This document shows, piece by piece, positions 35,128 through 55,249 of a stretch of DNA of 64,000 nt. The stretch lies in assembly GCA_965204375.1 (NCBI GenBank), contig OZ241986.1, positions 3,008,001 through 3,072,000 of the forward strand. The letters are read 5' to 3'. This DNA is from Candidatus Latescibacterota bacterium. GTDB lineage: Bacteria > Latescibacterota > UBA2968. The notes beneath the pieces are model-generated. The model had not been told where the DNA came from. It made no database searches and saw only the letters and a program-made list of their open reading frames with translations. The first letter of the stretch is position 1. Every line of letters begins with the position of its first letter. A program made the position numbers and the translations under genes.

Positions 35128-36180
35128 ATGAAAATCGCCGCTCTCATCTCCGGTGGTGTCGATAGTTCCGTGGCTTTGAACATATTAAAAAACGAAGGCC
35201 ACGACCTGACGGCATATTATCTAAAAGTATGGCTCGAAGACGAACTCGCTTTTTTGGGGGAATGTCCCTGGGAAGCCGACCTGAAATTTGTCCGTGCTGT
35301 ATGCGACCAACTCGACGTACCGCTACAAGTAATCTCTCTGCAATCGGAATACCTCGAGCGTGTGGTATCTTATGCACTCGACGAACTGCGCGCTGGACGC
35401 ACACCCAGTCCAGATATATTTTGCAACCAGCGAATCAAATTCGGCGCATTTTTTGACCACATAGACAGCAGCTATGAAAAAGTGGCAACCGGACACTACG
35501 CACAGATCGCACAGATCAACGGAACTTATCATCTAAAATGCGCCCCCGACCCCGTCAAAGATCAGACCTACTTCTTATCCGGCATGTATCAATCGCAGGT
35601 CGCACGGGCATTATTTCCCATCGGGAACATGATGAAAAGCGAAGTGCGCCAACTCGCGCGGGATTTTGACCTGCCAAACCAAGCGCGAAAAGACAGCCAG
35701 GGAATATGTTTCCTGGGCAAAATCAGATATCCAGACTTTATCGCATTTCACCTGGGCGAAAAAAAAGGCGATATTATCGACAGAGAAACCGGACAAATCC
35801 TGGGACCCCATCGGGGCTACTATTATTACACAATTGGACAGCGGTATGGCCTGGGATTGAGCGGAGGCCCCTGGTACGTCGTACAAAAAGATATTGAGTG
35901 CAACATCATCTATGTATCCCACGCCACGAAGCACAAGAAGACATCGCGGAACCAATTTGTCGCGACAAATCCCAATTGGATAGCAGAACCACCAGACAAA
36001 AACGCCCTGCAATTAAAACTACGTCACGGCCCAGAATTGATCAACTGTGAAATCGAAGCAACAGATAACAACCAATTATCCGTAACCATAGCAGAAAAAG
36101 ACTCCGGCATAGCACCCGGACAATTCGCCGTATTTTACGATGGCGACCTCTGCCTCGGAAGTGCGGTAATTGATCACTAA
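35128..36180 (+). CDS. mnmA: tRNA 2-thiouridylase
   Basis: SGGVDSSVA, TPSPDIFCN, ATGHYA, KDQTYFL, DSQGICF, APGQFAVFY. Confidence 0.96.
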   Translation: MKIAALISGGVDSSVALNILKNEGHDLTAYYLKVWLEDELAFLGECPWEADLKFVRAVCDQLDVPLQVISLQSEYLERVVSYALDELRAGRTPSPDIFCNQRIKFGAFFDHIDSSYEKVATGHYAQIAQINGTYHLKCAPDPVKDQTYFLSGMYQSQVARALFPIGNMMKSEVRQLARDFDLPNQARKDSQGICFLGKIRYPDFIAFHLGEKKGDIIDRETGQILGPHRGYYYYTIGQRYGLGLSGGPWYVVQKDIECNIIYVSHATKHKKTSRNQFVATNPNWIAEPPDKNALQLKLRHGPELINCEIEATDNNQLSVTIAEKDSGIAPGQFAVFYDGDLCLGSAVIDH

Positions 36181-36193
36181 AAAAGAGAACATA

Positions 36194-36943
36194 ATGAGCA
36201 TTGAACAGGCGCGTACCGCCGTCGAATCCGGTAATATAGACACTCTAAAGAGACTGATAGCAGAAGATCCGCAACTGGTCAATAAAACCACAGCGGACAA
36301 TCCCCGCACACTTTTGCACACACTTTGCGACTATCCCGCGCACAGACCCAGGTGCCGCGAATCCGCAGAAATTTTGATACGCTCAGGCGCGGATGTCAAT
36401 GCGCGGGCAAAATTCGAAGGAGAAACCGACCCTGGCGAAACACCCATGCACTGGGCAGCCAGCAGTGACGATGCGGAAATGATTGAAGTACTTCTCGATA
36501 GCGGTGCGGAAATCGACATCGATGGCGGGAATATTGCAAACGGCACACCGCTCTGGGAAGCCGTGATATTCGGCATGCAAAACGCAGCGGCAAAGCTAAT
36601 CGAGCGCGGGGCAACCTGCAACCTGATGATCGCTGCCGGCGTGGGGCGGTTCGATCTCGTTGAGAAATTCTTCGATAAGGAAGGCAATATAACGGATCGG
36701 GCGGGCGTCCTTCCGGGATGGACGGAACCCCGGTCTGCGCGAGATTGTATCGACAGTGCCTTCGGAATGGCCTGTCGCAATGGACACCTCGAAACCGCCA
36801 AATGGTTGCTGGGGAAAAAACCGGATATCAACCGCAAAAATCCCGTTGGCGAAACGCCTCTGGATCAAGCTATGGACAGAAAACACACCGAAGTAGCGGA
36901 CTGGTTGATGACAATTGGCGCGAAACGATCCACAGACTTATAA
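36194..36943 (+). CDS. Ankyrin repeat protein
   Basis: GETPMHWAA, GTPLWEA and GETPLDQA repeats. Confidence 0.9.
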   Translation: MSIEQARTAVESGNIDTLKRLIAEDPQLVNKTTADNPRTLLHTLCDYPAHRPRCRESAEILIRSGADVNARAKFEGETDPGETPMHWAASSDDAEMIEVLLDSGAEIDIDGGNIANGTPLWEAVIFGMQNAAAKLIERGATCNLMIAAGVGRFDLVEKFFDKEGNITDRAGVLPGWTEPRSARDCIDSAFGMACRNGHLETAKWLLGKKPDINRKNPVGETPLDQAMDRKHTEVADWLMTIGAKRSTDL

Positions 36944-40932: not shown

Positions 40933-40973
40933 GCACCTCCTGTCCTGAAATTGAAGACAGTTTTAAAAAAAAC

Positions 40974-41012
40974 TTGCATTTTAATCCAAGTGTATTATAT
41001 TAGTAATACAGT
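40974..41012 (+). promoter_or_regulatory. Promoter with YtrA-type GntR operator
   Basis: TTGCAT -35; palindrome TGTATTA-6-TAATACA (40991-41010) overlapping the -10, upstream of the GntR gene. Confidence 0.75.
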
Positions 41013-41037
41013 AATTCACTTGTTGAGAGAATACCTC

Positions 41038-41433
41038 ATGTTGATCTCGATTGACCATCACAATGGCATACCCGTTTTTCGCCAGATTATCGACCAGGTG
41101 AAATTCCACGTAGCCAGCGGGCTACTCGCGCCGGGCGACGAACTGCCCTCCACCCGCGCGTTATCGGGACAACTGGGACTCAATCCAATGACAGTGAGCA
41201 AAGCGTACAGCCTGTTGGAAGCAGAGGGATTAGTCGAGCGGCGGCGCGGACGACCTTTAACCGTAAAACCCTTACGAGATCAGACCGTACACGCCGAAAA
41301 GCTGTCACAACTCAAACCACAACTCACACAATTGGCAACAATGGTTCGGCAGTTGGGGGTTGATCGGACGGAAGTCTTAGATCTTTTCCTCTCCATCTTA
41401 GATACCCTGGAGGAAGATAATGATGGCACATGA
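41038..41433 (+). CDS. GntR (YtrA subfamily) transcriptional regulator
   Basis: PVFRQI, GDELPSTRALS, NPMTVSKAY; short C-terminus; precedes ABC genes. Confidence 0.93.
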   Translation: MLISIDHHNGIPVFRQIIDQVKFHVASGLLAPGDELPSTRALSGQLGLNPMTVSKAYSLLEAEGLVERRRGRPLTVKPLRDQTVHAEKLSQLKPQLTQLATMVRQLGVDRTEVLDLFLSILDTLEEDNDGT

Positions 41434-42313
41434 CCAGACATCTGTATTTGAAGCCACATCACTGACCAAAAAATTCGGCGACACCGTAGCTCTCAATTCC
41501 GTAACGCTCTCTCTTGGAGCGCATCGCGTAATTGGATTGATCGGGCGCAATGGCGGGGGCAAAACCACCTTAATCCAGCACATGATCGGCCTGTATTTGC
41601 CCACAGAGGGAACGTGTAAAACACTGGGACGCGCGTGCGATCAGTTGGGCGCAAACGAGCTATCGCGCATAGGCGTGGTCCATCAGGAAAACCGCTTTTT
41701 TGAATGGATGACCGTCAAACAGCATCTGCGCTACGTGTCCTCATTTTACGAGGTATGGGACCGCGACCTGGAATCACACCTGCTGCGAGAACTCGAACTG
41801 GAAACATCCGCACGCGTGGGCAATTTGTCTTCGGGTAACATGCAAAAATTGGGAATCATACTGGCAGTGTGTCATCATCCCGAGCTATTGATCTTAGATG
41901 AGCCAGTCAGTGGCCTGGACCCCATAGCGCGGGAGACATTGTTGAAATTTCTAATGACACTCTTGGCTGAAGACGAAAACACAATCGTAATCTCCTCACA
42001 CATTCTGCGGGACATCGAAAAAATAGTAGATTGGGTCGTATGCCTCGACGAAGGCAGGATCAAAGCCGACAAATCTCTGGACGATCTGCACCAGACCTAC
42101 GCAAAGTGGACAGTCACGGGAAACAACCTGCCCCAGCAATTTTCTGAGCCCTATATCCTGTCGCAAACAGTGAACGGGATACAGGCACAATTGATCGTCA
42201 ATCAGACACTGGGCAATGCAGATCAATTCAAGCGGACTTATCAGGCTGATATCACCAGTCAGTCCCTGAACCTCGACCAGCTATTTCCCATCCTGATTCG
42301 GGAGGGTGCGTAA
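41420..42313 (+). CDS. ABC transporter ATP-binding protein (YtrB-like)
   Basis: GRNGGGKT, LSSGN, LILDEP, ISSH. Confidence 0.93.
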   Translation: MMAHDQTSVFEATSLTKKFGDTVALNSVTLSLGAHRVIGLIGRNGGGKTTLIQHMIGLYLPTEGTCKTLGRACDQLGANELSRIGVVHQENRFFEWMTVKQHLRYVSSFYEVWDRDLESHLLRELELETSARVGNLSSGNMQKLGIILAVCHHPELLILDEPVSGLDPIARETLLKFLMTLLAEDENTIVISSHILRDIEKIVDWVVCLDEGRIKADKSLDDLHQTYAKWTVTGNNLPQQFSEPYILSQTVNGIQAQLIVNQTLGNADQFKRTYQADITSQSLNLDQLFPILIREGA

Positions 42314-43779
42314 TGGGTATCTCTCCATTTTTCACATTTTTGCGAAGCCCTGTTTACATTCTCATCGCATTTTTTGCATATCTGTTGCTCGCTCATGTCT
42401 GGATGTCTTCCCAAGCAGATCGAATCTCTGTATTCGTTTTGTTTTTCTTTCTTAAATTTTGGGGTGGGATAATCGGCAGCATCGTAGGGGAGAACCAGTA
42501 TCGGATGCTCACATGGACCCTGCCACATTTTCGCAAGCGTCTAATGATCTGGTCGATAATTGTCGGGTTGTTTTCCGTTATAGCGTGGACAGTCGCGCTG
42601 ACTTCTGCACCCCTCAATGCGTCCTGGTCAACGATTTTGCTGGTAAATTTGGGCCTCTATTGTATCGGATTTGCCCTTTCAGGAGGTTGGAGTTTTGGTA
42701 TCCAGCACCCCGGATTGGCTTCCAGGTGCCGGAGCCTCATCGTATTCCTGGGACTGGCATTAGCCTATTTGTGGCCAGGAGTGCTCGCTTTTGGAGAGCA
42801 ACAAAAATTGGGATTGGCTCTCATTGCATTCGTTATCGCAATTGGAGCTTATTATTTTGCCTTTAACCAGACAACTTTTCGGAGGAAACCATTTTCTTTA
42901 GTTCTTCCAGTGCGTTTAACCCTTTTTCCTCCAACCCAGGAGCTTTGGAAAAAAAATAGATTGAACAGGCGAAAGGCGAGTACCAGGGTATGGCATCTCG
43001 ATCACATCGGTACAGGCACCTTCAATTGGCTGCGTGCTGGTCAGTATGAAAACAGCGGTGCAGGCAGGGGGAGATGGCCGCTATGGCCGCTGTCCGCGTT
43101 TCCTGCAGTATTGGCAATGGTATTCTTTTTTTTTGGCATGACGACAGAGTTGTTCGGGATGTTGGGTCGATCTCCTTATGATTTTGAGACGCTATCAAAA
43201 ATGATTTATCACATGATTTTTTATTTTGACTCCAAGGTCGACGGGGATATATTCGCTACAGTGTTTTTCGGCATTTGTATGCATCTTTTTATTCCTCCTA
43301 CTTCACTGAAAAGAGGGTATGTCTATCCACTTTCTCGCACCCAGCGGATGTGGATTCGGTATAGCAGTTTGCTGGTGCAAAATATTTCTTTTTTTGTAGC
43401 ATCTATTCTGGTATTGGGCGTTCTGGGCATCCTGGCGGGAGCCAAGATCGGGTTTGTGTCTGAAGGAGAGGTTTCCCTGGGAATACTCTGTGTCCTTGGG
43501 TGGTGGGTCGTTCTTTTTCCAATATTTCAGTGGTTGCAAGTCAAATATGACCTGTATAATTTTCAAAGAACGCGGCAACAGATAGGCGGGATGGTTTTTC
43601 TGATCCTGGTCCTGATTTTGTCTCTTGTATTCACTGGTTTTACCAGTCTGATGCGTATCCGATATCCCGATCTTGTACTGACCTATGAAGTGCCGATCCT
43701 TTTTGTCTGTTTTATTCTCTTGCAATGGTTCTTATTGGCTCGGCTCAAACGGTATTATGCCACACAGGATCTGGTTTAG
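42313..43779 (+). CDS. Multi-TM membrane protein, probable ABC permease
   Basis: About 12 hydrophobic segments; TAATG coupling to the ATPase gene. Confidence 0.8.
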   Translation: MGISPFFTFLRSPVYILIAFFAYLLLAHVWMSSQADRISVFVLFFFLKFWGGIIGSIVGENQYRMLTWTLPHFRKRLMIWSIIVGLFSVIAWTVALTSAPLNASWSTILLVNLGLYCIGFALSGGWSFGIQHPGLASRCRSLIVFLGLALAYLWPGVLAFGEQQKLGLALIAFVIAIGAYYFAFNQTTFRRKPFSLVLPVRLTLFPPTQELWKKNRLNRRKASTRVWHLDHIGTGTFNWLRAGQYENSGAGRGRWPLWPLSAFPAVLAMVFFFFGMTTELFGMLGRSPYDFETLSKMIYHMIFYFDSKVDGDIFATVFFGICMHLFIPPTSLKRGYVYPLSRTQRMWIRYSSLLVQNISFFVASILVLGVLGILAGAKIGFVSEGEVSLGILCVLGWWVVLFPIFQWLQVKYDLYNFQRTRQQIGGMVFLILVLILSLVFTGFTSLMRIRYPDLVLTYEVPILFVCFILLQWFLLARLKRYYATQDLV

Positions 43780-44067: not shown

Positions 44068-47000
44068 ATGTTTGAAAACGGAACGATTCTCGACAAAAAA
44101 TATCAAATCCAGGCGCACCTGGGATCCGGGGGCATGGGCGAAGTCTATCGGGTTTTGGACCTGGAGCAAAGTCAGGAGTGTGCGCTCAAAATTTTGAATA
44201 CCATGGTGGATCAGAAGGCTGTGCATCGCCGCTTTCACAGAGAATTTCAAGTGTTGAACAGATTCCAGCACCCGCGCCTGGTACGCACGTATGCCTGGGG
44301 ATTTGCCGAAGAGCGTCCCTATTTTACAATGGAATATTTGCCCGGAAATACATTAGAAAAAATAATTGCCGATCATGCACGTTTAGGGCAATTCCGGACG
44401 TCTCACTTTTTCGATTTGATACAACAAATTGCTGATGGATTGGCATATATCCACGCGCAGGGTGCGGTGCATCGCGATCTCAAACCGTCCAATATTATGG
44501 TTTTGGAAACAGAAGAGGGGATCGAAACCACGATTCTGGATATGGGACTGGCCAAACTCAGGCATCTGCATAGCGTTTCCATTACGCAGACGGGCACAGC
44601 CATTGGCACGGCAGAATATATGTCGCCAGAGCAGGGTAAGGGACTCTGGGTGGATCACCGGTCGGATATATACTCATTGGGTGTGATTTTATACGAGATG
44701 CTCACGGGTGTACCACCCTTTTCTGGACAAAACCCAATATCTGTTATCATGAAGCATATTCGCGAGTCCCCGCCACCCCTGGATGAAGTCAATATCGCGA
44801 TTCCCGAACAGACGCAACAAATTGTGCTGAAGTTGCTGGCAAAGGAGTCTGTTGATCGCTATCAGTCGGCAGAAGAGGTGGTACGAGCCTTACCATCGAG
44901 ATTTGTACTACCCGATGACATGCAGCGCGATGTGCAAAGAAAAGTCATGCGGCCGCAATTTGTCGGGCGCGAATCCGAAACGAAGATATTGCGCGCCATG
45001 CTGAAGGATGTACAGGCTTGCGAGCAACGCGTGGTTCTGATCTCTGGTGAGTCTGGTGTGGGAAAAACGAGACTAATTGAGGAACTATTGGGCGACGCTT
45101 TGATCCATGACTTTCTGTGTTTGAAAGGCGCAGGCCAGGAAGAGGGCGGACAAATATACGGTGCGTTGATCAATGCTTTTCAAGGAATGACTGATTCGAT
45201 GGAAAGGGTTCCCGATTCTGTAGAATCAGACAAATTTTCTATTATGGAGCACTGGTTGCAGTTATTAAAGCGTCTGCAGCAGAAACAACCCATTGTGTTG
45301 TGTTTGGAAGATATTCAATGGGTGGATGAATTGACCCTGGAATTTTTACAGTATGTATTGCGTGATCCAGAACCGTGCCCGTTCTTATTATGCCTGACTT
45401 GTCGATGGTCTAACCTGGAACCGCTTCCAGAAGAAATTAAAAATTTTATACACAGCAATGCATTTGCCAAGGCGACTCAGATTCGGTTGAAAAATCTGCC
45501 ACAAGAAGCATCGGGATATTTAGCGGCGTCAATGTTGGGTGAACGATCCATACCGTCCGATGCATTGCAAACTCTATTCAGAGAAACGGGTGGGTTGCCC
45601 TTGTTTGTCGTGGAGGCGGTGCGGACACTGGTGAATGCCGACGTGGTTCGACAGAATGTGCCCGGCGATTGGCAGTGGGGAGAATTTCCCGAAACTTTGT
45701 TATCCGATGATATTTCAGAGATTTTGCACAGGCGCATAGCTACCCTTCCTGTGGTGCAACAGCGGGTGCTGGAATACGCCTGTGTTTTTCTAAATGACTT
45801 TTCTTTTGAGTTATTGGCAGCGGTTTGGCGCGGTGATGAATTAGAACTACTGGATATGCTGGACGACCTGATTGCAGAAGGACTTTTAGCACCTTGTGGA
45901 GAAACTGAAGATCAATATCGATTTTCACAGGAATTGTGTCGGCAGGCAATTTACGATCACATGCAAGATGTAAGACGGCGTCTGTTACATCGAGAAATTG
46001 GCAATATTTTGGAAAAGACGAAAGACGCGGAAGAATTGATAGAAGAACTGGCGGATCATTTTGCGGCAGCAAAAGAACGAGATAAGGCTGTGAAATATAC
46101 GCTTCTATCAGGCAAAAAGGCATTGGAAAAACATTCTTATCGCCAGGCATTGATGAGATTTGAGGCTGTACGGGACTGGGTAGCGAATGACGCCTTTGAA
46201 TCACCTGCAGATACTATTGATTTTTTGTGCGATTATGCAGATACGCTGCGTAACTGCGGTCAGCACAATAAAGCATTGGAACTTTTAGAGGAGGCACAGG
46301 CGTTATTGCCCGATGATCGGAAAGATTTGAAAGCGCGTATTTTGAATCGTGAAGGTGTTATTTACAGCTTGCTTCAACACAGGGAAATTGCTGAAGAATA
46401 TATGCTGGAGGCATTGCAGCTTTATCGTGAACTCGGTGATCTTGAGGGTGAAATTCAGACATTGGATAGTTTGGTTTATTTATGCGATGTGTCAGAACGG
46501 CACGAAGAAGCAATAGCGTATATGCGTCAAAAAATAGAGAAACATCATATGCTGGGAGATCCGCAAAACAGAGCTTTTATACAAGGGCGAGAAGGCCAGA
46601 CTGCATTAATGGAATTTCGCTTTGAGACAGCCAAAGAACATCTAAAAGCTGCAGTAAAAACATCTCAAAGACTTGGATTTGAACACTATCGTATTAGGGC
46701 ACTCAATTTACTTCAAAGAGTATATTTTTATCTCGGTGATCTCAATCGAGCAGAAGCCCTTTGCCATGAAGTCATCTGTGAGTGGCAAAAACGAGGCGAT
46801 GTGTATTGGGAAGCAATGAATCTTCTCTGGTTGGGAGAGTTAGCACTGGAACGAGATGATTTTACAGAAGCATTGGAATATGCCGAGATTTCGGTAGAGA
46901 GATTTTTGGAAACACCGCGAAGAGATTATGTCTATCGCGCTTATGCGATTGCGGCAACGGCTGCGGCGAGAATGAGAGATACAGAGACAGCACTGGAATG

Positions 47001-48870
47001 GGCAGAAAAAGCCAGTGAAGGTGTACAGCAAACATCGGGTATGTACACGGGCATATTGCCCCTGGTGCATTGTGGTATTGGTGTTGCTTTGGCTAAAGCA
47101 GGACGGATTGCTGAAGCTGAAGAGGCTTTTGAGCAGGCGATTGAATGCCGAAAAGAATCCAAAGGCGACAACTGGGCGCGTGCGCTACTGATGGCAGGGG
47201 AGTTTTATCTCAATTGCGATGATATGGCAAAAGCACAAGCACATCTCAAAGCGGCAAAACAGGCGTTTGAAGAAATGGAAATGTCTTATTTTCAAGAGAA
47301 AATACAGGTATTATTGAATCAATCAGGGGAATCTTCTCACGACAGTGATACTGCATCCGATTCTGAGATTTCAGTCGATACGTTGTCCGTTGATCGCTTG
47401 CGCTTGCTTTACGATATGAGCCGGGAATTGACAACAGAGCGCGATGTCAAAGTATTATTGGATCGAATTTTGGGTAATTTGTTAGCTGTTTATCCAGCAG
47501 AGCGCGTGCTTGTTGCGATTAAAAATGAGACCCCAAAAGGCTTTGTGGTCGATGCTGTGCGCTACCACAATGTAGAAGCAGATGATGCAGAAGCTCTGAG
47601 TCGGGGTATTATTCGCTGCGTTATTGAGACAAATGAGCCCATTTTGAGCATTGATGCCCAGACAGACGACAGGCTCAATCAATATCAAAGCGTAATAGAC
47701 TATCACATTCGGTCTGTATTGTGCGTGCCCGTATTCCATCTGAATGAAGGTGTGATGGGTGCGCTATATGTGGATCATCGCGGTATAGGCAACGCATTTT
47801 CTCAAGAAGATCAGACATTTTTACAGGCATTTGCAAATCTGGTGGGTGTCGCACTGGTCAATGCGAGAATGTACGAACAATTGGAAGAAAAAGCGCGATA
47901 TTTGCAGCAACAGGTCGAAAAACGATATCAGCTTGACGATCTGGTCGGGCAAAGCGATGCTATGCAGGCGATCTACCGGCTTATAGAACGCGCTGCGAAG
48001 AGTGATATTCCCGTGCTTATTCAAGGTGAAACAGGTACAGGCAAAGAATTAGCTGCGCGCGCCATACACTACAATAGTACACGCAAAGACCAGCCATTTT
48101 TGTCGCAAAATTGTGCTGCTCTTTCACCAGATTTATTGCAGAGTGAGTTGTTTGGGCACAAAAAAGGCGCGTTTACAGGAGCAACTGAAGATCATAAGGG
48201 GATTTTTGAAGCGGCTGATGGCGGTACGGTTTTTCTCGATGAAATCGCCGATGCTCCCCCACCGTTGCAAAGGAGTCTGTTGCGGGTGTTGCAAGAAGGA
48301 GAGGTGCGGCGCGTGGGCGAAACAGTGAATCGCGCAGTGGATATACGCATTATTGCAGCGACCAATCGAGACTTAAAACAGGAAGTTGCAAAAGGCTTTT
48401 TCCGCGAAGATTTGTATTATCGGTTGCACGGGATTCAGATCGATATGCCGCCTTTGCGAGAACATATTGAAGATGTGCCGTTATTGGCCGAACATCTGCT
48501 CACCCGAGCAAAAGAAGATGCAAACAAGTCGGTTGGGGGACTGACAGTGGGTGCAATCAGGGCGCTCACAAGCTATGACTGGCCTGGCAATGTGCGCGAG
48601 TTGGAGAATAAGATTCGGCGTGCGGTTGCATTGGCAGAAGAAGGTGGTGAAATCACGTCCAATTTGTTTTCGGAAGCTGTCGGCTACACGACGTCGGATG
48701 TCCCTGTCGGATACCAGGGACATTTACAAGATCGTGTTCGGGAATATGAGAAATGGTTGATTATGGATGCTCTCGAGAAATACGAGGGCAATATTACGCA
48801 TACGGCTAAAGAATTAGGGATAACGCGCGCTGGATTGCAGAAAAAGATCAATCGTTTGGAGTTGAGATAG
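44068..48870 (+). CDS. Ser/Thr kinase - STAND AAA - TPR - GAF - sigma54 activator (AAA+, Fis-type HTH)
   Basis: GSGGMG, HRDLKPSN, DMG, GTAEYMSPE; GESGVGKT/LEDIQW; TPR-like helices; SVLCVP...GALYVD; GETGTGKE, GAFTGA, FLDEI, FREDLYYRL; HTH. Confidence 0.93.
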   Translation: MFENGTILDKKYQIQAHLGSGGMGEVYRVLDLEQSQECALKILNTMVDQKAVHRRFHREFQVLNRFQHPRLVRTYAWGFAEERPYFTMEYLPGNTLEKIIADHARLGQFRTSHFFDLIQQIADGLAYIHAQGAVHRDLKPSNIMVLETEEGIETTILDMGLAKLRHLHSVSITQTGTAIGTAEYMSPEQGKGLWVDHRSDIYSLGVILYEMLTGVPPFSGQNPISVIMKHIRESPPPLDEVNIAIPEQTQQIVLKLLAKESVDRYQSAEEVVRALPSRFVLPDDMQRDVQRKVMRPQFVGRESETKILRAMLKDVQACEQRVVLISGESGVGKTRLIEELLGDALIHDFLCLKGAGQEEGGQIYGALINAFQGMTDSMERVPDSVESDKFSIMEHWLQLLKRLQQKQPIVLCLEDIQWVDELTLEFLQYVLRDPEPCPFLLCLTCRWSNLEPLPEEIKNFIHSNAFAKATQIRLKNLPQEASGYLAASMLGERSIPSDALQTLFRETGGLPLFVVEAVRTLVNADVVRQNVPGDWQWGEFPETLLSDDISEILHRRIATLPVVQQRVLEYACVFLNDFSFELLAAVWRGDELELLDMLDDLIAEGLLAPCGETEDQYRFSQELCRQAIYDHMQDVRRRLLHREIGNILEKTKDAEELIEELADHFAAAKERDKAVKYTLLSGKKALEKHSYRQALMRFEAVRDWVANDAFESPADTIDFLCDYADTLRNCGQHNKALELLEEAQALLPDDRKDLKARILNREGVIYSLLQHREIAEEYMLEALQLYRELGDLEGEIQTLDSLVYLCDVSERHEEAIAYMRQKIEKHHMLGDPQNRAFIQGREGQTALMEFRFETAKEHLKAAVKTSQRLGFEHYRIRALNLLQRVYFYLGDLNRAEALCHEVICEWQKRGDVYWEAMNLLWLGELALERDDFTEALEYAEISVERFLETPRRDYVYRAYAIAATAAARMRDTETALEWAEKASEGVQQTSGMYTGILPLVHCGIGVALAKAGRIAEAEEAFEQAIECRKESKGDNWARALLMAGEFYLNCDDMAKAQAHLKAAKQAFEEMEMSYFQEKIQVLLNQSGESSHDSDTASDSEISVDTLSVDRLRLLYDMSRELTTERDVKVLLDRILGNLLAVYPAERVLVAIKNETPKGFVVDAVRYHNVEADDAEALSRGIIRCVIETNEPILSIDAQTDDRLNQYQSVIDYHIRSVLCVPVFHLNEGVMGALYVDHRGIGNAFSQEDQTFLQAFANLVGVALVNARMYEQLEEKARYLQQQVEKRYQLDDLVGQSDAMQAIYRLIERAAKSDIPVLIQGETGTGKELAARAIHYNSTRKDQPFLSQNCAALSPDLLQSELFGHKKGAFTGATEDHKGIFEAADGGTVFLDEIADAPPPLQRSLLRVLQEGEVRRVGETVNRAVDIRIIAATNRDLKQEVAKGFFREDLYYRLHGIQIDMPPLREHIEDVPLLAEHLLTRAKEDANKSVGGLTVGAIRALTSYDWPGNVRELENKIRRAVALAEEGGEITSNLFSEAVGYTTSDVPVGYQGHLQDRVREYEKWLIMDALEKYEGNITHTAKELGITRAGLQKKINRLELR

Positions 48871-48881
48871 ACGTTGAACAG

Positions 48882-49004
48882 GTGCATCCAACTGTATGCA
48901 GCAGTGCATCCAGCTATATGCACTTGTATATCCTTATATAATTCAGATATTTATGTCTATTTTATTTAAAACAGGCGATTACAGGTGCATCCTGCCGTAT
49001 GCAC
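48882..49004. promoter_or_regulatory. Three palindromic enhancer (UAS) sites GTGCAT-N8-ATGCA(C)
   Basis: GTGCATCCAACTGTATGCAG (48882), GTGCATCCAGCTATATGCAC (48904), GTGCATCCTGCCGTATGCAC (48985), about 110-230 bp upstream of a sigma54 promoter. Confidence 0.8.
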
Positions 49005-49068: not shown

Positions 49069-49096
49069 CACTTGAGCACATTCAAGTGTTTTTTTT
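49069..49096 (+). terminator. Terminator-like hairpin insulating the sigma54 promoter
   Basis: CACTTGA-6-TCAAGTG followed by an 8-T run; overlaps an IHF-like site at 49062-49074. Confidence 0.55.
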
Positions 49097-49112
49097 ATGA
49101 TAGGGAGATCTT

Positions 49113-49128
49113 TGGCACGGATCTTGCA
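49113..49128 (+). promoter_or_regulatory. Sigma54 (-24/-12) promoter
   Basis: TGGCACGGATCTTGCA matches consensus TGGCACG-N4-TTGC with GG-N10-GC spacing. Confidence 0.9.
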
Positions 49129-49182
49129 CTATAAAAAGGACAAATCGTTATGGCACAGAATTTTCCATTAAAGGAGGATAAC

Positions 49183-49362
49183 ATGGCAACACGACGCAAG
49201 TTGACTTTGATCAATGGGACGATAGATCAAGAAGGTAGCATCCTTATGTATCAGACTGTGGATAGTTTTGAAATTGGGAGCTGTGAACCTGGTTGGGTAA
49301 CCGTTCCCCCCCTGCCCTTTCCAGATGATGACGATTGGGACGATTTTGAACAGGCTGAGTGA
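49183..49362 (+). CDS. Putative RiPP precursor peptide (59 aa, single Cys)
   Basis: AAGGAGGA RBS; MATRRKLTLINGTIDQEGSILMYQTVDSFEIGSCEPGWVTVPPLPFPDDDDWDDFEQAE; lies between the sigma54 promoter and the RRE-rSAM gene. Confidence 0.8.
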   Translation: MATRRKLTLINGTIDQEGSILMYQTVDSFEIGSCEPGWVTVPPLPFPDDDDWDDFEQAE

Positions 49363-49383: not shown

Positions 49384-50814
49384 ATGCTATGCATTCAGAA
49401 ATGTGACATGCATCTTTTTCAAACTGAAGAGCAAAAACAGCCTGTTGCCTATCAGGTTGAGACGGGTCTGTTTTTTGAACTGGACCCCCTTTTCAAATCA
49501 ATTTTAGAATGTTGCGAGGGCTTGTCTGCTTCACAGGTTGTCCAGATGCTGGTCGGCCAATACGAGGCAGAAGAAGTTGTCGAAGCCATCGAGGAACTGG
49601 CTCAGGTGGGGTTGATTTCAGATGGTGCACTACCTGTAGTGCCCAATGTGCCGACGACAGAAGGGGTGGCAGCCTGTGGCGTATCGCAGACAGACCGTTT
49701 GCAGGTGTCGTTGCACGTTTCGCATACGTGCAATATTCAGTGTGCTTATTGCTTTGCCCACGGTGGGGATTACGGCGGCAAGGCCATGCTGATGCAACCC
49801 GATGTTGCCAAGCAAGCTATTCGATGGATCATCACCGAGGCTCAGGTGTTCGGGCGTTGCCAGATTGATTTTTTTGGCGGGGAGCCGCTTTTGAACTTTC
49901 CACTGTTGCAGAAGCTCGTTCCGTTTGCCAGGTCTCTGGGAGCGCGATTAGGTGTGCAGGTGGGATTTGGCATTGTGACCAATGGCACGTTGTTGACCGA
50001 AGAGATGAAGCAGTTTTTGGTTGATGAAAAGTTTCAGATTAAGGTCAGCCTGGATGGTGGGCGTAAAACACAGGACCGGATTCGCAAGTTTCACAATGGT
50101 TCTGGTACTTATGATGTTGTGGCAAAAAATGTGAAAAAGCTGACTGCTGAGGCACCTGAGCGCGTGTATTTGCAAGCCATTATGACCGCGTATGATATGG
50201 ATGAAGATCGGATTGCCGATGAGTTGCGTTCTCTGGGTAGTGAAAATGCGCTCATCGGTCCCGCTGTTGTCTCCCCGGATGCGCCTTATGCCATTCGAGA
50301 AGAACACCTGCCCGTTTTGAAGCAACAGATTTACAAGCGGAGCAGGCGTGCGCTCAAAGCCATTTTAAACGGTGAAGAGAGTGAGGAGTTTGATCCGAGG
50401 ATTCAAAAATTGCTGACGCGCCAGAAATCGTGTCACGGGTGTCTCGGCGGTAAGCAGTATCTGGCTGTTGCAGCAGACGGGTCGATTTATTTTTGCTCGA
50501 GTTTGGCCGATGCACCCGAGTTTAAGATGGGTGATGTGTTTGCGGGTATTGACCGCGAAAAGCAGCAGCATTTTGACACTCAGTTCAATGTGAATAATCG
50601 TCCTGAGTGCAAAACCTGCTGGGCGTGCAACTTGTGTGGTGGCGGATGTCTTTGGGATGCGCGCACGACGACGGGTGATCCGATGTATCCCAACCCGGTT
50701 GCTTGTGAACAGACGCGCTATCGCTATGAACTGGCGATGGAGATGTGTATGGAAATTGCAGAAGTGGATGCGTCTTTGTTGCAGCGACGATATGATCTGG
50801 AAGTGGTATCATAA
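49384..50814 (+). CDS. Radical SAM/SPASM peptide maturase with N-terminal RRE (PapB/QhpD/CteB-like)
   Basis: PqqD-like N-terminus; CNIQCAYC; FFGGEPLLN; VSLDG; SPASM C...C...CKTCWACNLCGGGC...C. Confidence 0.92.
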   Translation: MLCIQKCDMHLFQTEEQKQPVAYQVETGLFFELDPLFKSILECCEGLSASQVVQMLVGQYEAEEVVEAIEELAQVGLISDGALPVVPNVPTTEGVAACGVSQTDRLQVSLHVSHTCNIQCAYCFAHGGDYGGKAMLMQPDVAKQAIRWIITEAQVFGRCQIDFFGGEPLLNFPLLQKLVPFARSLGARLGVQVGFGIVTNGTLLTEEMKQFLVDEKFQIKVSLDGGRKTQDRIRKFHNGSGTYDVVAKNVKKLTAEAPERVYLQAIMTAYDMDEDRIADELRSLGSENALIGPAVVSPDAPYAIREEHLPVLKQQIYKRSRRALKAILNGEESEEFDPRIQKLLTRQKSCHGCLGGKQYLAVAADGSIYFCSSLADAPEFKMGDVFAGIDREKQQHFDTQFNVNNRPECKTCWACNLCGGGCLWDARTTTGDPMYPNPVACEQTRYRYELAMEMCMEIAEVDASLLQRRYDLEVVS

Positions 50815-50900: not shown

Positions 50901-50933
50901 TCTTTAGGTGGGAGTCTCGACAGATTGTGAGTG

Positions 50934-51926
50934 ATGGGAGAAATATATCAATCAAAAAAATCCGGCCTCAATAAATGGTCGCTCATTGGACAGCATTCCT
51001 CACTCTTAGACGTGCAAAAGCGCGCGTACCGCGTGGCGAATAGCGAATTGCCCGTCAACATCAGTGGAGAAACTGGCACGGGCAAAGAATTACTCGCCCG
51101 TTATATCCACGAAATGAGTCACCGCAACAGGGGACCCTTTGTAACCGTTGACTGTGGCGTACTCTCTTCTGAAATGTCTCGCAGCGAGTTATTTGGACAT
51201 ATTCGAGGTGCTTTCACCGGCGCCAGCGAAACGCGCACCGGACTGGTTGAATCTGCCCAGGGCGGCACACTATTCCTCGATGAAGTAGGCGAATTGCCCT
51301 CCAACCTCCAGTTGCAATTGCTACGCCTGGTACAGGAACAGGAATTTCGCCGGGTAGGCGAAGCATCCATGCGCCGGTCCGACGTGCGCTTAATCACTGC
51401 GACACACTGCAACTTGCGAAAAATGGTGCGAAAAGGAACATTTCGAGAAGACCTCTATTACCGCTTAAGTGTCGTACCTCTAAAATTGCCACCCCTGCGG
51501 AAGCGACTGAGCGATTTACCGCTTTTAGTCGCGCATTTTTGCCAGGAAATGAAAGGATACAATCGCGCGTTTTCCCCCGAAGTGATTCAAAGGATGTCGC
51601 GTTATGCCTGGCCTGGCAATGTTCGGGAACTACAACACGAAGTCGCCCGATTGATGGTCATGGCCGAAGGTAAAATTATCCGCGTATCCGACCTGCGCCC
51701 TCGCATTCGAGGAGCAAAAGCCGAGGTTGATGTATTTGACCTGCCGTTCAAAGAAGCCAGACAACTCGCGAACAGCCGGTTTATGCGAGAGTATCTCGAC
51801 AGAGCTTTGCAGCGAACACAGGGCAATGTAACCCAGGCAGCGCAACAATGCGGAATTGGCCGACAGTATTTCCAATTGCGTATGTCCGAACACGGGCTAA
51901 AGTCGGCATATTACAAGAAAAAATAA
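50934..51926 (+). CDS. Sigma54-dependent activator lacking a sensory domain (AAA+ and HTH only)
   Basis: GETGTGKE about 45 aa from the start, GAFTGA, FLDEV, FREDLYYRL, WPGNVREL, GNVTQAAQQCGIGR. Confidence 0.92.
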   Translation: MGEIYQSKKSGLNKWSLIGQHSSLLDVQKRAYRVANSELPVNISGETGTGKELLARYIHEMSHRNRGPFVTVDCGVLSSEMSRSELFGHIRGAFTGASETRTGLVESAQGGTLFLDEVGELPSNLQLQLLRLVQEQEFRRVGEASMRRSDVRLITATHCNLRKMVRKGTFREDLYYRLSVVPLKLPPLRKRLSDLPLLVAHFCQEMKGYNRAFSPEVIQRMSRYAWPGNVRELQHEVARLMVMAEGKIIRVSDLRPRIRGAKAEVDVFDLPFKEARQLANSRFMREYLDRALQRTQGNVTQAAQQCGIGRQYFQLRMSEHGLKSAYYKKK

Positions 51927-51954: not shown

Positions 51955-51988
51955 AAAAACGTCAATGGGTTTTTCCATTGACGTTTTT
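51955..51988. terminator. Intrinsic terminator
   Basis: AAAAACGTCAATGG-6-CCATTGACGTTTTT. Confidence 0.85.
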
Positions 51989-52015
51989 CCTTGCAGGGTG
52001 TTTCTTGAGCGTATC

Positions 52016-55000
52016 ATGCAATACATCGCCGACATACACCTGCACTCGCGCTTTGCCCGCGCAACCAGCAAAACCCTGAACCCCGAAAACCTGTATCGGT
52101 GGAGCCTCATCAAAGGTCTGACCGTGGTGGGCACCGGAGACTTCACCCATCCGGTATGGTTTGAAGAATTGCGCGATCAACTCGAACCCGCCGAAGAAGG
52201 GTTATATCAATTGCGCCCAGACCTCAGGCGAGGCATAGACGCCGAGTTGCCACAAGCCTGCCGAGGACAAATGCGATTTGTGCTCTCGGTCGAAATCAGT
52301 CTCATCTACAAAAAAAACGACAAAACCAGAAAAATACATCACGTCGTCACAATGCCGAGTTTTGACGCTGCGGCGCGTTTAAATGCGCGACTCGGCGCAA
52401 TAGGCAACCTGAAATCCGATGGACGCCCCATTCTTGGCCTGGACAGCCGGGACCTGGTAGAAATTTGTCTGGAAGCGTGTGACGAGGTACTCTTCATACC
52501 CGCCCACATCTGGACCCCTCATTTTGCGGTCCTGGGCGCGAGTTCCGGATTTGACACCCTCGAAGAATGTTTTGAAGACATGCTCCCCCACATCTTCGCC
52601 GTAGAAACCGGCCTGTCCTCCGACCCGCCGATGAACTGGCGCCTATCCATGCTGGACAACTACGCAATCGTCTCCAATTCAGACGCCCACTCCCCGCAAA
52701 AACTCGCCCGAGAAGCCACCTGCTTTAACACAGAATTATCATTCCGCGGGATGTACGACGCATTAAAAGACCGCGACCCAACGCGCTTCACGGGCACCCT
52801 GGAATTTTATCCCGAAGAAGGCAAATATCACTTTGACGGACACAGAAAATGCGATATATGCTGGAAACCCGTACAAACCCTCGACGCAAACGAAATCTGC
52901 CCGGTATGCGGCCGCAAATTGACCGTTGGCGTACTCCACCGCGTTGAAAAACTCGCAGACCGCGCAGAAGGCGACCGCCCCGACGTGGCGATGCCCTTTG
53001 AAAATCTGATCCCACTATCGGAAATCATCGGCTCAGTCCTCCAGGTGGGACCCACCAGCAAGCGCGTACAAACCGTGTACGAGCAAATGCTATCAACACA
53101 CGGGGCAGAATTGAAAATCCTGCGCGAACTGCCCATCGAAGAAATCGCAAAAACCGGAGACCCCCTCATCGCCGAAGGCATCCGACGCATGCGCGAAGGA
53201 GAAGTTCACATAGACCCGGGATACGACGGCGTGTACGGAAAAATTCAAGTCTTCTCCGACGAAGACCGCGCACGTCTGAGCGGACAGGAATCGCTATTTA
53301 ACATACCAGCCGAGGAGCCTTCGAAAGAGAAAGCAGAGAACGCGAGCCTGGACAAGAACACAGAAAACTCAATAGCCAAAGATCCTCCCTTCACACTTCC
53401 CACTTCTCACTTCACACTTCTCACTTCCCACCAGCAAGCAGCCGTAACAATGGAAAAAGGTCCCGTCATCGTAACAGCGGGACCCGGCACAGGAAAAACG
53501 CGGGTACTCACCCATCGCGTAATCGACCTGATCCAGAACCGCGGCGTATCGCCAGCTTCTGTGATGGCCGTAACATTTACCAATCGCGCCGCAACTGAAA
53601 TGTGGGAGCGCATTGTATCACTATCCTCGGGAGGAGAAGAACTCGTCCCAATGCGCGTGGGCACATTCCACCGCCTATCACTGGACCTCCTGCGAGAATA
53701 CGCCCCCGAGCGATTGGGCGCAATAGCCGACCGAGGAGAAGCCCGTGCCGTCTTACAGGAAGCAATCGCCGACATCGACACCGAAATATCGGTCGATGAC
53801 GCGCTCTCCCAGATCTCGCTATGCAAAGCCCAGGGACATGAAACACCCGACATCACCGACACCGAACTCCAAACCATTTACACAAATTATCAACATCGCC
53901 TGACCGCTTATGACCTCATGGACTTTGACGACATCTTGCTCATCCTCCACGACGTGCTCTGCGGCGACATTTTACAAACAGTCCAGGCGCGTTTTTCCCA
54001 TATACTCGTCGATGAATTTCAGGATGTCAACGCCGTACAGTACGCACTAATTCAAAAATTAGCTGGGGATGGCTCGGGCCTCTTTGTCATCGGCGACCCC
54101 GATCAAGCCATCTACGGTTTTCGGGGCGCGAGCGCGGGATATTTTACACAATTAAAAGCGGACTTTCCCCACGCGAACGAAGTAATCCTACAACAATCAT
54201 ATCGCTCCACCCCACAGATCATTTCCGCAGCATCCAGCCTGCTTCGCGGGCGATCGTACGTCCCCGTAAGAGAAAACGGTCCTAAACTGAGCGCCTTATC
54301 CACACCGGGCGAAACCGGCGAAGGCATCGCCATCGTAGAAGAAATCTCCCGAATGGTTGGCGGCGCAGATTTATTGCAAGCCAACGAAGAAGGCAAACGC
54401 AGCCTGGACGACTTCGCCGTCTTATTCCGCACCGGACGCCAGGCAGACGCCCTGGAAGCGTGCTTCTTACAGGCGGGGATTCCCTACCGCGTCGTCGGGC
54501 AGAAAAATTATCTGGACGCGGCCTCAGTACAGCATGCACTATCGTTTTTTAAGTGCATCCTGCGGGATGACATTTCCAGCACCCCAACCACCAGAGATAT
54601 AACCGACCTCCTCTCCATCCCCGCATTTGACCCCGGACGGGAAGCGCGCGCATCAATACGCCAGCAAATTCAAAACAACGCGCTATCGGACGCTGTGCAG
54701 GAAAAATGGGACGCCGCGATGGAAGCTGTAGATCGCTTCCGCGATGAAACATCTCACCTATCGCCTTCCGAACGCATAGCAAAATGGACAGAAGAATTTG
54801 CGACATCAGACGATATCGACCTTGAGCGATTGAGCCTATTGGCTCAGGGCGTGGATACCATCGCAGAGCTATTGGACATCATCACCCTGGGACAGGATGG
54901 CGATTTCGTACGTCGTGGAAAAATTGCGCGTCCCGAAGCCGTCACACTCATGACCTTGCATGCGTCCAAGGGCCTGGAATTCCCCGTGGTATTTATCTGT

Positions 55001-55249
55001 GGGGTTGAGGAAGGATTGATCCCGCACGCCGAAGCGGATATCGAAGAAGAGAAGCGCCTATTTTTTGTCGGCATAACCCGCGGACAAGACGAAGTGATCT
55101 TGACCCGCGCCCGAAGCCGCAGGCGATTTGGCGAACGCATCGCACCCGAAATATCGCGCTTTGTAGCCGATATCCCCGAAGACGTCATCGACTTTGTCGA
55201 TCTGCGAACTGAAAGACGCAAACCCGCCGAACAACTATCCCTATTTTAA
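52016..55249 (+). CDS. Endonuclease Q (PHP-fold) fused to UvrD/PcrA helicase
   Basis: ADIHLHSRF, GTGDFTHP, PAHIWTP, ETGLSSD, SNSDAHS, GKYHFDGHRKC...CPVC; then AGPGTGKT, VDEFQD, GDPDQAIYGFRGA, TLHASKGLEF. Confidence 0.93.
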   Translation: MQYIADIHLHSRFARATSKTLNPENLYRWSLIKGLTVVGTGDFTHPVWFEELRDQLEPAEEGLYQLRPDLRRGIDAELPQACRGQMRFVLSVEISLIYKKNDKTRKIHHVVTMPSFDAAARLNARLGAIGNLKSDGRPILGLDSRDLVEICLEACDEVLFIPAHIWTPHFAVLGASSGFDTLEECFEDMLPHIFAVETGLSSDPPMNWRLSMLDNYAIVSNSDAHSPQKLAREATCFNTELSFRGMYDALKDRDPTRFTGTLEFYPEEGKYHFDGHRKCDICWKPVQTLDANEICPVCGRKLTVGVLHRVEKLADRAEGDRPDVAMPFENLIPLSEIIGSVLQVGPTSKRVQTVYEQMLSTHGAELKILRELPIEEIAKTGDPLIAEGIRRMREGEVHIDPGYDGVYGKIQVFSDEDRARLSGQESLFNIPAEEPSKEKAENASLDKNTENSIAKDPPFTLPTSHFTLLTSHQQAAVTMEKGPVIVTAGPGTGKTRVLTHRVIDLIQNRGVSPASVMAVTFTNRAATEMWERIVSLSSGGEELVPMRVGTFHRLSLDLLREYAPERLGAIADRGEARAVLQEAIADIDTEISVDDALSQISLCKAQGHETPDITDTELQTIYTNYQHRLTAYDLMDFDDILLILHDVLCGDILQTVQARFSHILVDEFQDVNAVQYALIQKLAGDGSGLFVIGDPDQAIYGFRGASAGYFTQLKADFPHANEVILQQSYRSTPQIISAASSLLRGRSYVPVRENGPKLSALSTPGETGEGIAIVEEISRMVGGADLLQANEEGKRSLDDFAVLFRTGRQADALEACFLQAGIPYRVVGQKNYLDAASVQHALSFFKCILRDDISSTPTTRDITDLLSIPAFDPGREARASIRQQIQNNALSDAVQEKWDAAMEAVDRFRDETSHLSPSERIAKWTEEFATSDDIDLERLSLLAQGVDTIAELLDIITLGQDGDFVRRGKIARPEAVTLMTLHASKGLEFPVVFICGVEEGLIPHAEADIEEEKRLFFVGITRGQDEVILTRARSRRRFGERIAPEISRFVADIPEDVIDFVDLRTERRKPAEQLSLF
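53389..53430 (+). repeat. Heptamer tandem repeat (CTTCNCA)x6 in the interdomain linker
   Basis: CTTCACA CTTCCCA CTTCTCA CTTCACA CTTCTCA CTTCCCA, 42 bp. Confidence 0.9.

Follow-up and report, generated by a model that had tools for sequence, protein, structure and literature searches.

A 64,000-nucleotide stretch of contig OZ241986.1 from a Candidatus Latescibacterota bacterium (hereafter the window, at its full length) contains, at positions 49183-49362, a short gene whose 59-residue product has a single cysteine and which is placed between the gene of a very large regulator and that of a radical S-adenosylmethionine (radical-SAM) maturase. With a probability that we put at roughly one half, these three genes represent an undescribed family of peptides that are made on the ribosome and modified after translation (RiPPs), in which the peptide would acquire a single thioether, would be expressed from a sigma-54 promoter and, once modified, would act as the ligand of its own regulator. 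The reality of the gene, its synteny, its conservation pattern, the promoter architecture and the co-variation between the genes were computed.

Homologs were collected by a search with the peptide, which returned 198 proteins at E ≤ 1 out of 199 candidates. The best 120 of the 198 were listed and, together with the peptides read from fetched loci, they gave 181 records or 145 distinct sequences, on which the residue counts are based. Ratios of nonsynonymous to synonymous substitution rates (dN/dS) are pooled Nei-Gojobori estimates over 33 genes. The three genes and the parts of the precursor are as follows.

44068-48870, + strand: regulator of 1600 residues with Ser/Thr kinase, STAND-type NTPase (AAA_16), TPR (MalT-like), GAF, sigma-54 AAA+ and Fis-type helix-turn-helix (HTH) domains
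49171-49177, + strand: ribosome-binding site AAGGAGG, 5 nt ahead of the ATG at 49183
49183-49362, + strand: precursor open reading frame (ORF), 59-residue peptide and stop codon
49183-49281, + strand: leader, residues 1-33, with invariant L7, L9, N11 and G12
49282-49284, + strand: Cys34 codon, invariant in 145 of 145 distinct homologs
49285-49302, + strand: hypervariable cassette, residues 35-40, EPGWVT in the window copy
49303-49323, + strand: Pro-rich block VPPLPFP, residues 41-47, nearly fixed, dN/dS 0.12
49324-49362, + strand: acidic-aromatic tail, residues 48-59, and stop codon, dN/dS 0.21
49384-50814, + strand: maturase of 476 residues with a PqqD-like N-terminus (putative RiPP recognition element, RRE), a radical-SAM core and a SPASM domain, starting 21 nt past the peptide stop

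The precursor translates as MATRRKLTLINGTIDQEGSILMYQTVDSFEIGSCEPGWVTVPPLPFPDDDDWDDFEQAE, and its layout is a leader, an invariant cysteine, a six-residue hypervariable cassette, a Pro-rich block and an acidic tail. The original prediction, made from the letters of the window alone, had described Cys34 as the only cysteine, with Glu30, Glu35 and Trp38 around it and PPLPFP and a tail behind it. The translation agrees: Cys34 is the sole Cys among the 59 residues, the three named residues are in place, and the region is followed by PPLPFP and by the acidic-aromatic stretch DDDDWDDFEQAE, in which a run of Asp begins 14 residues past Cys34. The importance that was attached to Cys34 is borne out by its presence in every homolog; both Cys codons are in use, with synonymous change only and zero replacements. 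Both flanks are constrained. Within the leader, residues 1-29 have a dN/dS of 0.34 and residues 30-33 one of 0.46. In the Pro-rich block, P42, F46 and P47 are found in 145 of 145 sequences, and V41 and P45 in 143 each; in the tail, D49 occurs in 144 of 145, W52 in 127 of 138 and F55 in 131 of 145. The cassette between them has column entropies of 1.3-2.9 bits and a dN/dS of 0.95, and its sequences form recurrent discrete types in which some positions are restricted. Counted from Cys34, position +1 (residue 35) is P in 49, E in 33 and A in 19 of the 145; +2 is P or S in 132 (P alone in 90); +3 is G in 107; +4 (residue 38) is W in 51, D in 18, P in 16 and Arg in 10; and +5 (Val39 in the window copy) is I, F, P, V, L or T in 143. 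Leader cleavage at a double glycine before the Cys, where roughly every second sequence has GG, was considered and dismissed, since many members read I-C, H-C or L-C.

The peptide had zero matches to NCBIfam and Pfam models at E ≤ 0.01, and a look-up in the ESM Atlas gave no usable match. A likeness of the leader to those of PapA, SCIFF and QhpC, which the original prediction had pointed out, found no counterpart in these model searches, and the SCIFF leader seen in fetched loci is different.

A program-made list of ORFs opens the same frame at an earlier ATG, at 49150, giving 70 amino acids. Many related loci have a stop codon 7-9 codons 5' of the Met that matches the ATG at 49183, so that the extension could not be read there. 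An AGGAG-type site and an ATG were kept at the equivalent place in 36 of 36 loci examined. We favor 49183 as the start because of the AAGGAGG site, the upstream stops in relatives and this conservation. Judged by sequence comparison, the peptide gene is real and constrained; it goes beyond a chance ORF because of its homologs, the invariant Cys34, the purifying selection on the flanks of the cassette and the match to a sigma-54 promoter described below.

The claim that this is a RiPP-type precursor was upheld by its position 21 nt 5' of an enzyme of PqqD-like, radical-SAM and SPASM architecture that is closest to thioether maturases. The maturase scores above the cut-offs of both the Radical_SAM and the SPASM models of Pfam, and its cysteines are C116, C120 and C123 (CX3CX2C) in the radical-SAM core and C353, C371, C409, C412, C418, C422 and C441 in the SPASM domain. 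All three of the former and all seven of the latter are kept in genus-level, distant and SCIFF-type maturases. The best relative of the maturase with a solved structure is CteB (5wgg, E 9e-60), and the alignment covers residues 22-452 including the N-terminal domain. Named families were approached and not reached: 257.4 bits for the SCIFF maturase model TIGR03974 (cut-off 425), 251.3 for the QhpD model TIGR03906 (453), 245 for the nif11-peptide maturase model (519), 226.2 for the PapB model NF047865 (340) and 114.8 for the anaerobic sulfatase-maturase model TIGR03942 (349). By these scores, the maturase groups with the ranthipeptide maturases yet falls under the cut-off of every named family; its identity to SCIFF-type maturases is 28-33%. 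Co-variation between the leader and the RRE was not seen (Mantel r -0.18).

Relatives were found in records of Candidatus Latescibacterota metagenome-assembled genomes (MAGs), a few older ones being labeled Gemmatimonadetes or Poribacteria. Within the genus, one to three copies are present in 15 of the 20 other genomes; across the phylum, a maturase at E ≤ 1e-80 was found in 25 of 168 genomes searched, representing 6 of 49 genera. The conserved unit consists of the three genes for regulator, peptide and maturase. In one set, 23 of 24 loci have the peptide gene directly 5' of the maturase, the lone miss being a truncated contig, and so do 32 of 32 whole genus-level loci of another set. Directly 5' of the peptide, 32 of 34 genus-level loci have a regulator homolog (the remaining two contain less than 700 nt of upstream DNA), and one is also upstream in all four distant loci inspected (L070-L073). 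The upstream regulators comprise 24 whole genes, six split into two frames or truncated, and two cut by contig ends. The six (at L048, L049, L050, L056, L060 and L065) stand beside intact peptide and maturase genes, and may be either decaying circuits or assembly errors in long-read MAGs.

The genome itself has a second locus, with a 62-residue paralog of the peptide (83% identical) and a maturase that is 94% identical; the order regulator-peptide-enzyme is kept and the outer neighbors are different. A DDE transposase gene (DDE_Tnp_1_4; L008, 6380-7738, - strand) is located two genes 3' of this second peptide-maturase locus.

More distant maturases (42-56% identity) follow short precursors that have a similar basic start, a leader motif of the L-x-[IV]-N-[GA] type (two loci read I-N-R instead) and a lone core Cys, behind which comes a stretch rich in Pro and aromatics; in one group this reads C-x-W-P-x-F-P-x-L-P-P-P. 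The original prediction had pointed to the acidic tail as an element that binds protein or mimics DNA: this part is indeed conserved and constrained within the genus-level family, but it is missing from the distant subfamilies, whose tails are neutral or basic. By this comparison, genus-level and distant precursors have in common the leader, the single Cys, a turn-prone stretch behind it and, in most cases, a hydrophobic residue at +7; the acidic tail belongs to the genus level only. At one distant locus (L097, reverse strand, about 1195-1502), the precursor is apparently split, with the leader and the Cys core in separate frames; it is intact in the close relative L098.

The region between the regulator and the peptide gene contains the following elements.

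48882-48901 (one mismatch), 48904-48923 and 48985-49004, + strand: three palindromes GTGCAT-N8-ATGCAC, putative upstream activator sites
49069-49098, + strand: terminator-like hairpin with an 8-bp stem and a T8 tail, lying after the regulator gene and before the promoter
49113-49128, + strand: sigma-54 (-24/-12) promoter TGGCAC-N5-TTGCA, 55 nt ahead of the start codon

The pattern TGGCAC-N5-TTGCW has a single exact match in the 64-kb window, with 0.18 expected and at least one match in 15 of 100 shuffles. A GG-N10-GC element was present at the same distance in 36 of 36 loci, 29 of them by the first pattern and the other 7 reading TTGCG. The palindrome GTGCAT-N8-ATGCAC has three matches in the window, with 0.21 expected, and all of them lie between the regulator stop and the promoter; exact sites number three across the 6.34-Mb genome, of which two are upstream of the window peptide. 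Other loci have GTGTAT, GTGTAA or AGTGTA half-sites instead of GTGCAT. The HTH helix of the regulator contains GLQKK in 13 of 13 loci with GTGCAT half-sites and in none of 10 loci with GTGTA-type half-sites. A GG-N10-GC promoter, upstream palindromes and a linked activator with AAA+ and HTH domains, which together characterize a sigma-54 operon, are all present in the sequence, and the adjacent regulator would be the activator of the peptide-maturase operon.

The palindrome of the hairpin is kept in most loci. As a regulator site (49069-49088), it was rejected because the T8 tail that follows makes a terminator the better reading. The same 8-bp stem with a T-run is found four times in the genome, both peptide loci included; apart from the window copy, the places are G000:C1:3608488, 4462142 and 5164102 (L105-L107). 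At L106 and L107, a sigma-54-type promoter lies about 25 nt further on; one of these two hairpins has an NtrC-type response regulator ahead of it and a 67-residue ORF after it, and the other precedes a Sel1-repeat protein. The hairpin and the sigma-54 promoter give the impression of a terminator-promoter unit that is shared.

In STAND proteins, the TPR part senses the ligand. In the window regulator, the MalT-like TPR match scores 36.8 bits, and 47.5 bits in the paralog at the second locus, with a cut-off of 45. Compared over 24-29 loci, the regulator is most variable at residues ~800-900, in the TPR region. Cassette distances were correlated with those computed for residues 801-900 of the regulator (Mantel r 0.40, p 0.0005, n = 28), and values for the other 100-residue windows of the regulator ranged from -0.01 to 0.18. 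The correlation between cassette and maturase was about 0, and the same TPR segment gave r 0.06 with the leader and -0.03 with the tail. When any single cassette class was removed, the cassette-TPR correlation stayed at 0.35-0.47. The six cassette classes required 11 changes on the tree of the TPR stretch, 12 on that of the rest of the TPRs, 13 on the GAF-to-HTH tree, 16 on the NTPase tree and 19 on the maturase tree; shuffled labels needed 18 on average and never fewer than 14. The nearest neighbor of a maturase copy was within the same genome in 9-10 of 33 cases, and that of a regulator domain in 0-2 of 20-26. Our reading is that the maturase would be interchangeable and partly homogenized between copies, and that regulator and cassette would form lasting pairs. 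A complex prediction of regulator residues 640-1290 (TPR and GAF) with the peptide, run with no controls, scored 0.00 and is evidence neither way.

The crosslink, the regulator's binding of DNA and of the peptide, and export, if there is any, are inferred. The maturase would bind the conserved leader and form one sulfur-to-carbon (thioether) bridge from Cys34 to a residue a few positions downstream; as this bridge would join Cys34 to a downstream residue, the variable cassette would lie in a small ring. Judged by spacing and composition, the likeliest acceptors are the residue at +5 (Val39 here) or the nearly invariant Val41 at +7, and not Trp38; position +5 is proposed because of the Cys-to-i+5 link made by the CteB family and the restricted composition at this position. 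The peptide and maturase genes would be co-transcribed from the sigma-54 promoter, which the kinase/STAND/TPR/GAF activator would turn on via the palindromes just upstream. Its MalT-like TPR sensor would read the modified loop: since the cassette changes with the TPR segment and not with the enzyme, the peptide in its modified form probably serves its own regulator as ligand. A type-specific, pherotype-like loop of autoinduction or self-recognition would result. More tentatively, and as something that we hold possible rather than probable, each trio might be a private circuit in which the TPR reads only its own loop type and the regulator serves its own promoter through its own palindrome type, with an interchangeable radical-SAM enzyme and up to three orthogonal circuits per genome.

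With regard to the chemistry, the original prediction had favored a Cys34-Trp38 link or a reverse Glu30-x3-Cys34 thioether as the feature that defines the product, and the window copy does have both residues in place. Across the family, Glu30 is frequent (119 of 145), but K takes its place in 18 sequences and G in 7; Trp38, whose conservation that prediction had itself made decisive, is W in only 51, and Glu35, also pointed out there, is E in only 33. As neither Trp38 nor Glu30 is kept throughout, such a link would not be family-defining. Moreover, maturases are 89-94% identical among loci without these residues, and the aromatics of the distant subfamilies are positioned differently, which makes this chemistry very improbable. 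A radical-SAM enzyme might also oxidize the lone Cys without any bridge, for instance to a formylglycine-like aldehyde, as do the anaerobic sulfatase-maturating SPASM enzymes (anSMEs), which act on a single Cys within the sulfatase motif C-x-P-x-R. The single target Cys, the frequent Pro at +2 and the rank of an anSME as the second-best solved relative of the maturase (4k36, E 1.7e-17) are in line with this. We consider it improbable, as the anSME model reaches 115 bits against 226-257 bits for thioether-forming maturases, Arg at +4 occurs in 10 of 145 sequences only, and the N-terminal domain of the maturase, of the leader-binding type, is homologous to that of CteB.

With regard to the role, the product might instead be a secreted peptide for competition, a bacteriocin-like ranthipeptide with an arms-race core, in which the regulator sets the timing and the TPR senses something else. 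Several cassettes per genome, many co-occurring relatives and the dN/dS of the cassette suit this idea, and a hypervariable core between conserved recognition parts is generally the pattern of bioactive RiPPs (as also in an excerpt of PMC12426817). On balance we find it doubtful, since genes for an exporter, a leader protease or immunity are not conserved next to the trio, purifying selection acts on the conserved 19-residue follower, something unexpected for a part to be discarded, and the cassette tracks a segment of the regulator and not the enzyme. The same minimal gene unit without export genes is what would be expected of a small modified protein that stays in the cell, like SCIFF or QhpC, with the Pro-rich block and acidic tail binding a partner and the cassette left unconstrained. 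The strong constraint on tail and Pro-rich block fits such a protein, and the near-1 dN/dS of the cassette is equally in line with relaxed constraint and with diversifying selection. This explanation is unlikely in our view: distant subfamilies that keep the trio lack the acidic tail, the cassettes fall into recurrent discrete types with constrained +2, +3 and +5, and they co-vary with the TPR segment.

Several points weigh against our preferred reading of a singly bridged peptide that is sensed by its own regulator. The PqqD match at maturase residues 21-78 reaches 21.7 bits with a cut-off of 23.4 (E 2.5e-4). The window copy of the maturase has a further cysteine, Cys415 (window 50626-50628), between C412 and C418; residue 415 is Arg in all 32 other genus-level copies and in the distant ones, and Arg or Lys in the SCIFF-type maturases. 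Cys415 could be a genuine substitution near an auxiliary cluster or a sequencing error. The choice of acceptor is a guess from spacing and composition. The match between half-site and HTH helix amounts to one independent contrast when only well-supported branches are counted and three when all branches are, numbers at which significance is unreachable; as sequence data, it is a consistent pattern and not statistical proof. The loci share ancestry. The cassette classes also follow the tree of the whole regulator (12-13 changes on other C-terminal parts, and clades rich in one class), and much of the correlation could therefore come from the regulator being simply inherited with its cassette, combined with gene conversion of the radical-SAM gene. 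In addition, the TPR stretch has the greatest statistical power because it is the most variable part of the regulator. Among the loci compared, no protease, exporter or immunity gene conserved beside the trio was seen, and secretion and re-sensing lack genetic support because no protease or dedicated exporter is conserved there. RNA libraries were also consulted. Contigs 88-99% identical to the locus were found in four sponge or coral runs from three studies; in three runs (three studies) a contig matches the peptide leader and then the start of the radical-SAM gene, skipping cassette and tail, and RNA-library contigs of relatives match both cassette flanks and skip the cassette. We did not take these contigs as proof of transcription, because they stem from relatives, start upstream of the predicted promoter and are possibly contaminated with DNA.

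In the surroundings of the trio, PADLOC reported no known defense system, only generic matches to a kinase, an RtcR-type AAA+ and a viperin-type radical-SAM domain. The maturase is followed by a gene for a 331-residue sigma-54 activator (50931-51926) with AAA+ and HTH only and without a sensor domain, and then by a 1094-residue fusion of a PHP domain and a UvrD helicase (51965-55249). About 12 related loci have such a short sigma-54 activator 3' of the maturase, usually followed by an ORF of ~1090-1110 residues, and other loci are without it. Directly upstream of the large regulator (40951-43779) are genes for a GntR regulator, an ABC ATPase and a protein of 488 residues that belongs to no known family. 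An ORF of 465-493 residues, compared by size alone, is at the same spot in loci that share the genomic position of the window and is absent from other copies; thus, the 488-residue protein was placed outside the conserved trio. An ankyrin-repeat protein (36170-36943) is encoded amid ordinary metabolic genes; eukaryote-like repeat proteins of this kind are often noted in host-associated bacteria.

The family is set apart by its single-Cys substrate, by a variable loop framed by two conserved parts and by a sensor-regulator that is always present. Links between loop type and sensor segment, and between palindrome type and DNA-binding helix, would make the role of the peptide a testable hypothesis. 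The family would also offer a first way into the function of the very large kinase/STAND/sigma-54 regulators that uncultured Latescibacterota have. One enzyme serving many loop sequences would be a potentially useful small and tolerant scaffold for cyclization. We found no description of the peptide family or of the trio in open-access texts and preprints (subscription journals were outside this coverage). The type of chemistry is probably already known; a single-Cys, variable-loop precursor with a STAND/sigma-54 partner has not been described in these sources and appears to be new.

Among known systems, SCIFF (CteA/CteB) is similar in its two-gene unit of precursor and enzyme without export genes and in what looks like the same three-part architecture of the enzyme. 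CteB is the best solved relative of the window maturase and TIGR03974 its best family match, far under the cut-off. CteA has a Cys-to-i+5 thioether. SCIFF precursors from fetched loci (L077-L093) have six Cys in ~45 residues, a nearly invariant core and a different leader, whereas the window peptide combines a lone Cys with a hypervariable core and a long follower. Freyrasin (PapA/PapB) and other ranthipeptides share the type of maturase, with the PapB cut-off missed, but the repeated C-x3-D units of PapA are lacking here. Described ranthipeptides have Cys-rich, nearly fixed cores with several Cys-acceptor pairs, unlike a peptide whose one Cys is the sole invariant Cys in 145 sequences; to our knowledge, most of them still lack an assigned biological role. 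An excerpt of PMC12993501 mentions 'ranthipeptide' clusters called by antiSMASH in sponge-associated Latescibacterota genomes, without further description there, and these may be peptide-maturase loci of this family.

The QhpC/QhpD system has a related type of enzyme, with the TIGR03906 cut-off missed, and differs in that QhpC has several Cys instead of one. According to the portion of PMC13692751 that deals with it, the QhpC product stays in the cell and a radical-SAM enzyme makes its Cys-to-Asp/Glu thioethers. No amine-dehydrogenase genes were found near the window peptide, where the neighbors are regulators, the helicase fusion and an ABC transporter. PMC13692751 also describes CrpA/CrpC of methanogens, with a ranthisynthase-like SPASM enzyme and the Cys first, followed by an acceptor 3-4 residues on, in motifs (ACAGM, CAVD, CPLVL) some of which end in non-acidic residues (Met, Leu). 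By that account, acidic acceptors are not required, because some CrpA motifs end in non-acidic residues. CrpA, likened here by description alone, is a 29-kDa protein with several sites and not a short peptide.

The regulator resembles MalT-type STAND regulators in that a P-loop NTPase precedes a MalT-like TPR region. Its residues 379-707 match TIGR03903 (E 5.5e-89; 299 bits, cut-off 706), Haft's 'TOMM system kinase/cyclase fusion protein', which was named for its link to RiPP clusters and which has a cyclase output in contrast to the sigma-54 AAA+ and HTH here. In logic, the trio resembles the RRNPP systems and staphylococcal Agr: a small peptide gene beside a TPR-bearing regulator, discrete variable peptide types that track the sensor of the receptor, and apparent activation of the own promoter. 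RRNPP quorum sensing pairs a receptor of the RRNPP fold with a linear peptide that is secreted and taken up again. The trio is different in its 1600-residue kinase/STAND/GAF/sigma-54 activator, which stands in place of an RRNPP protein, in the predicted radical-SAM-type modification of the peptide and in having no linked export or import genes. If our reading is true, a system of pherotype or kin recognition outside Firmicutes would be built from a radical-SAM-cyclized peptide and a STAND receptor.

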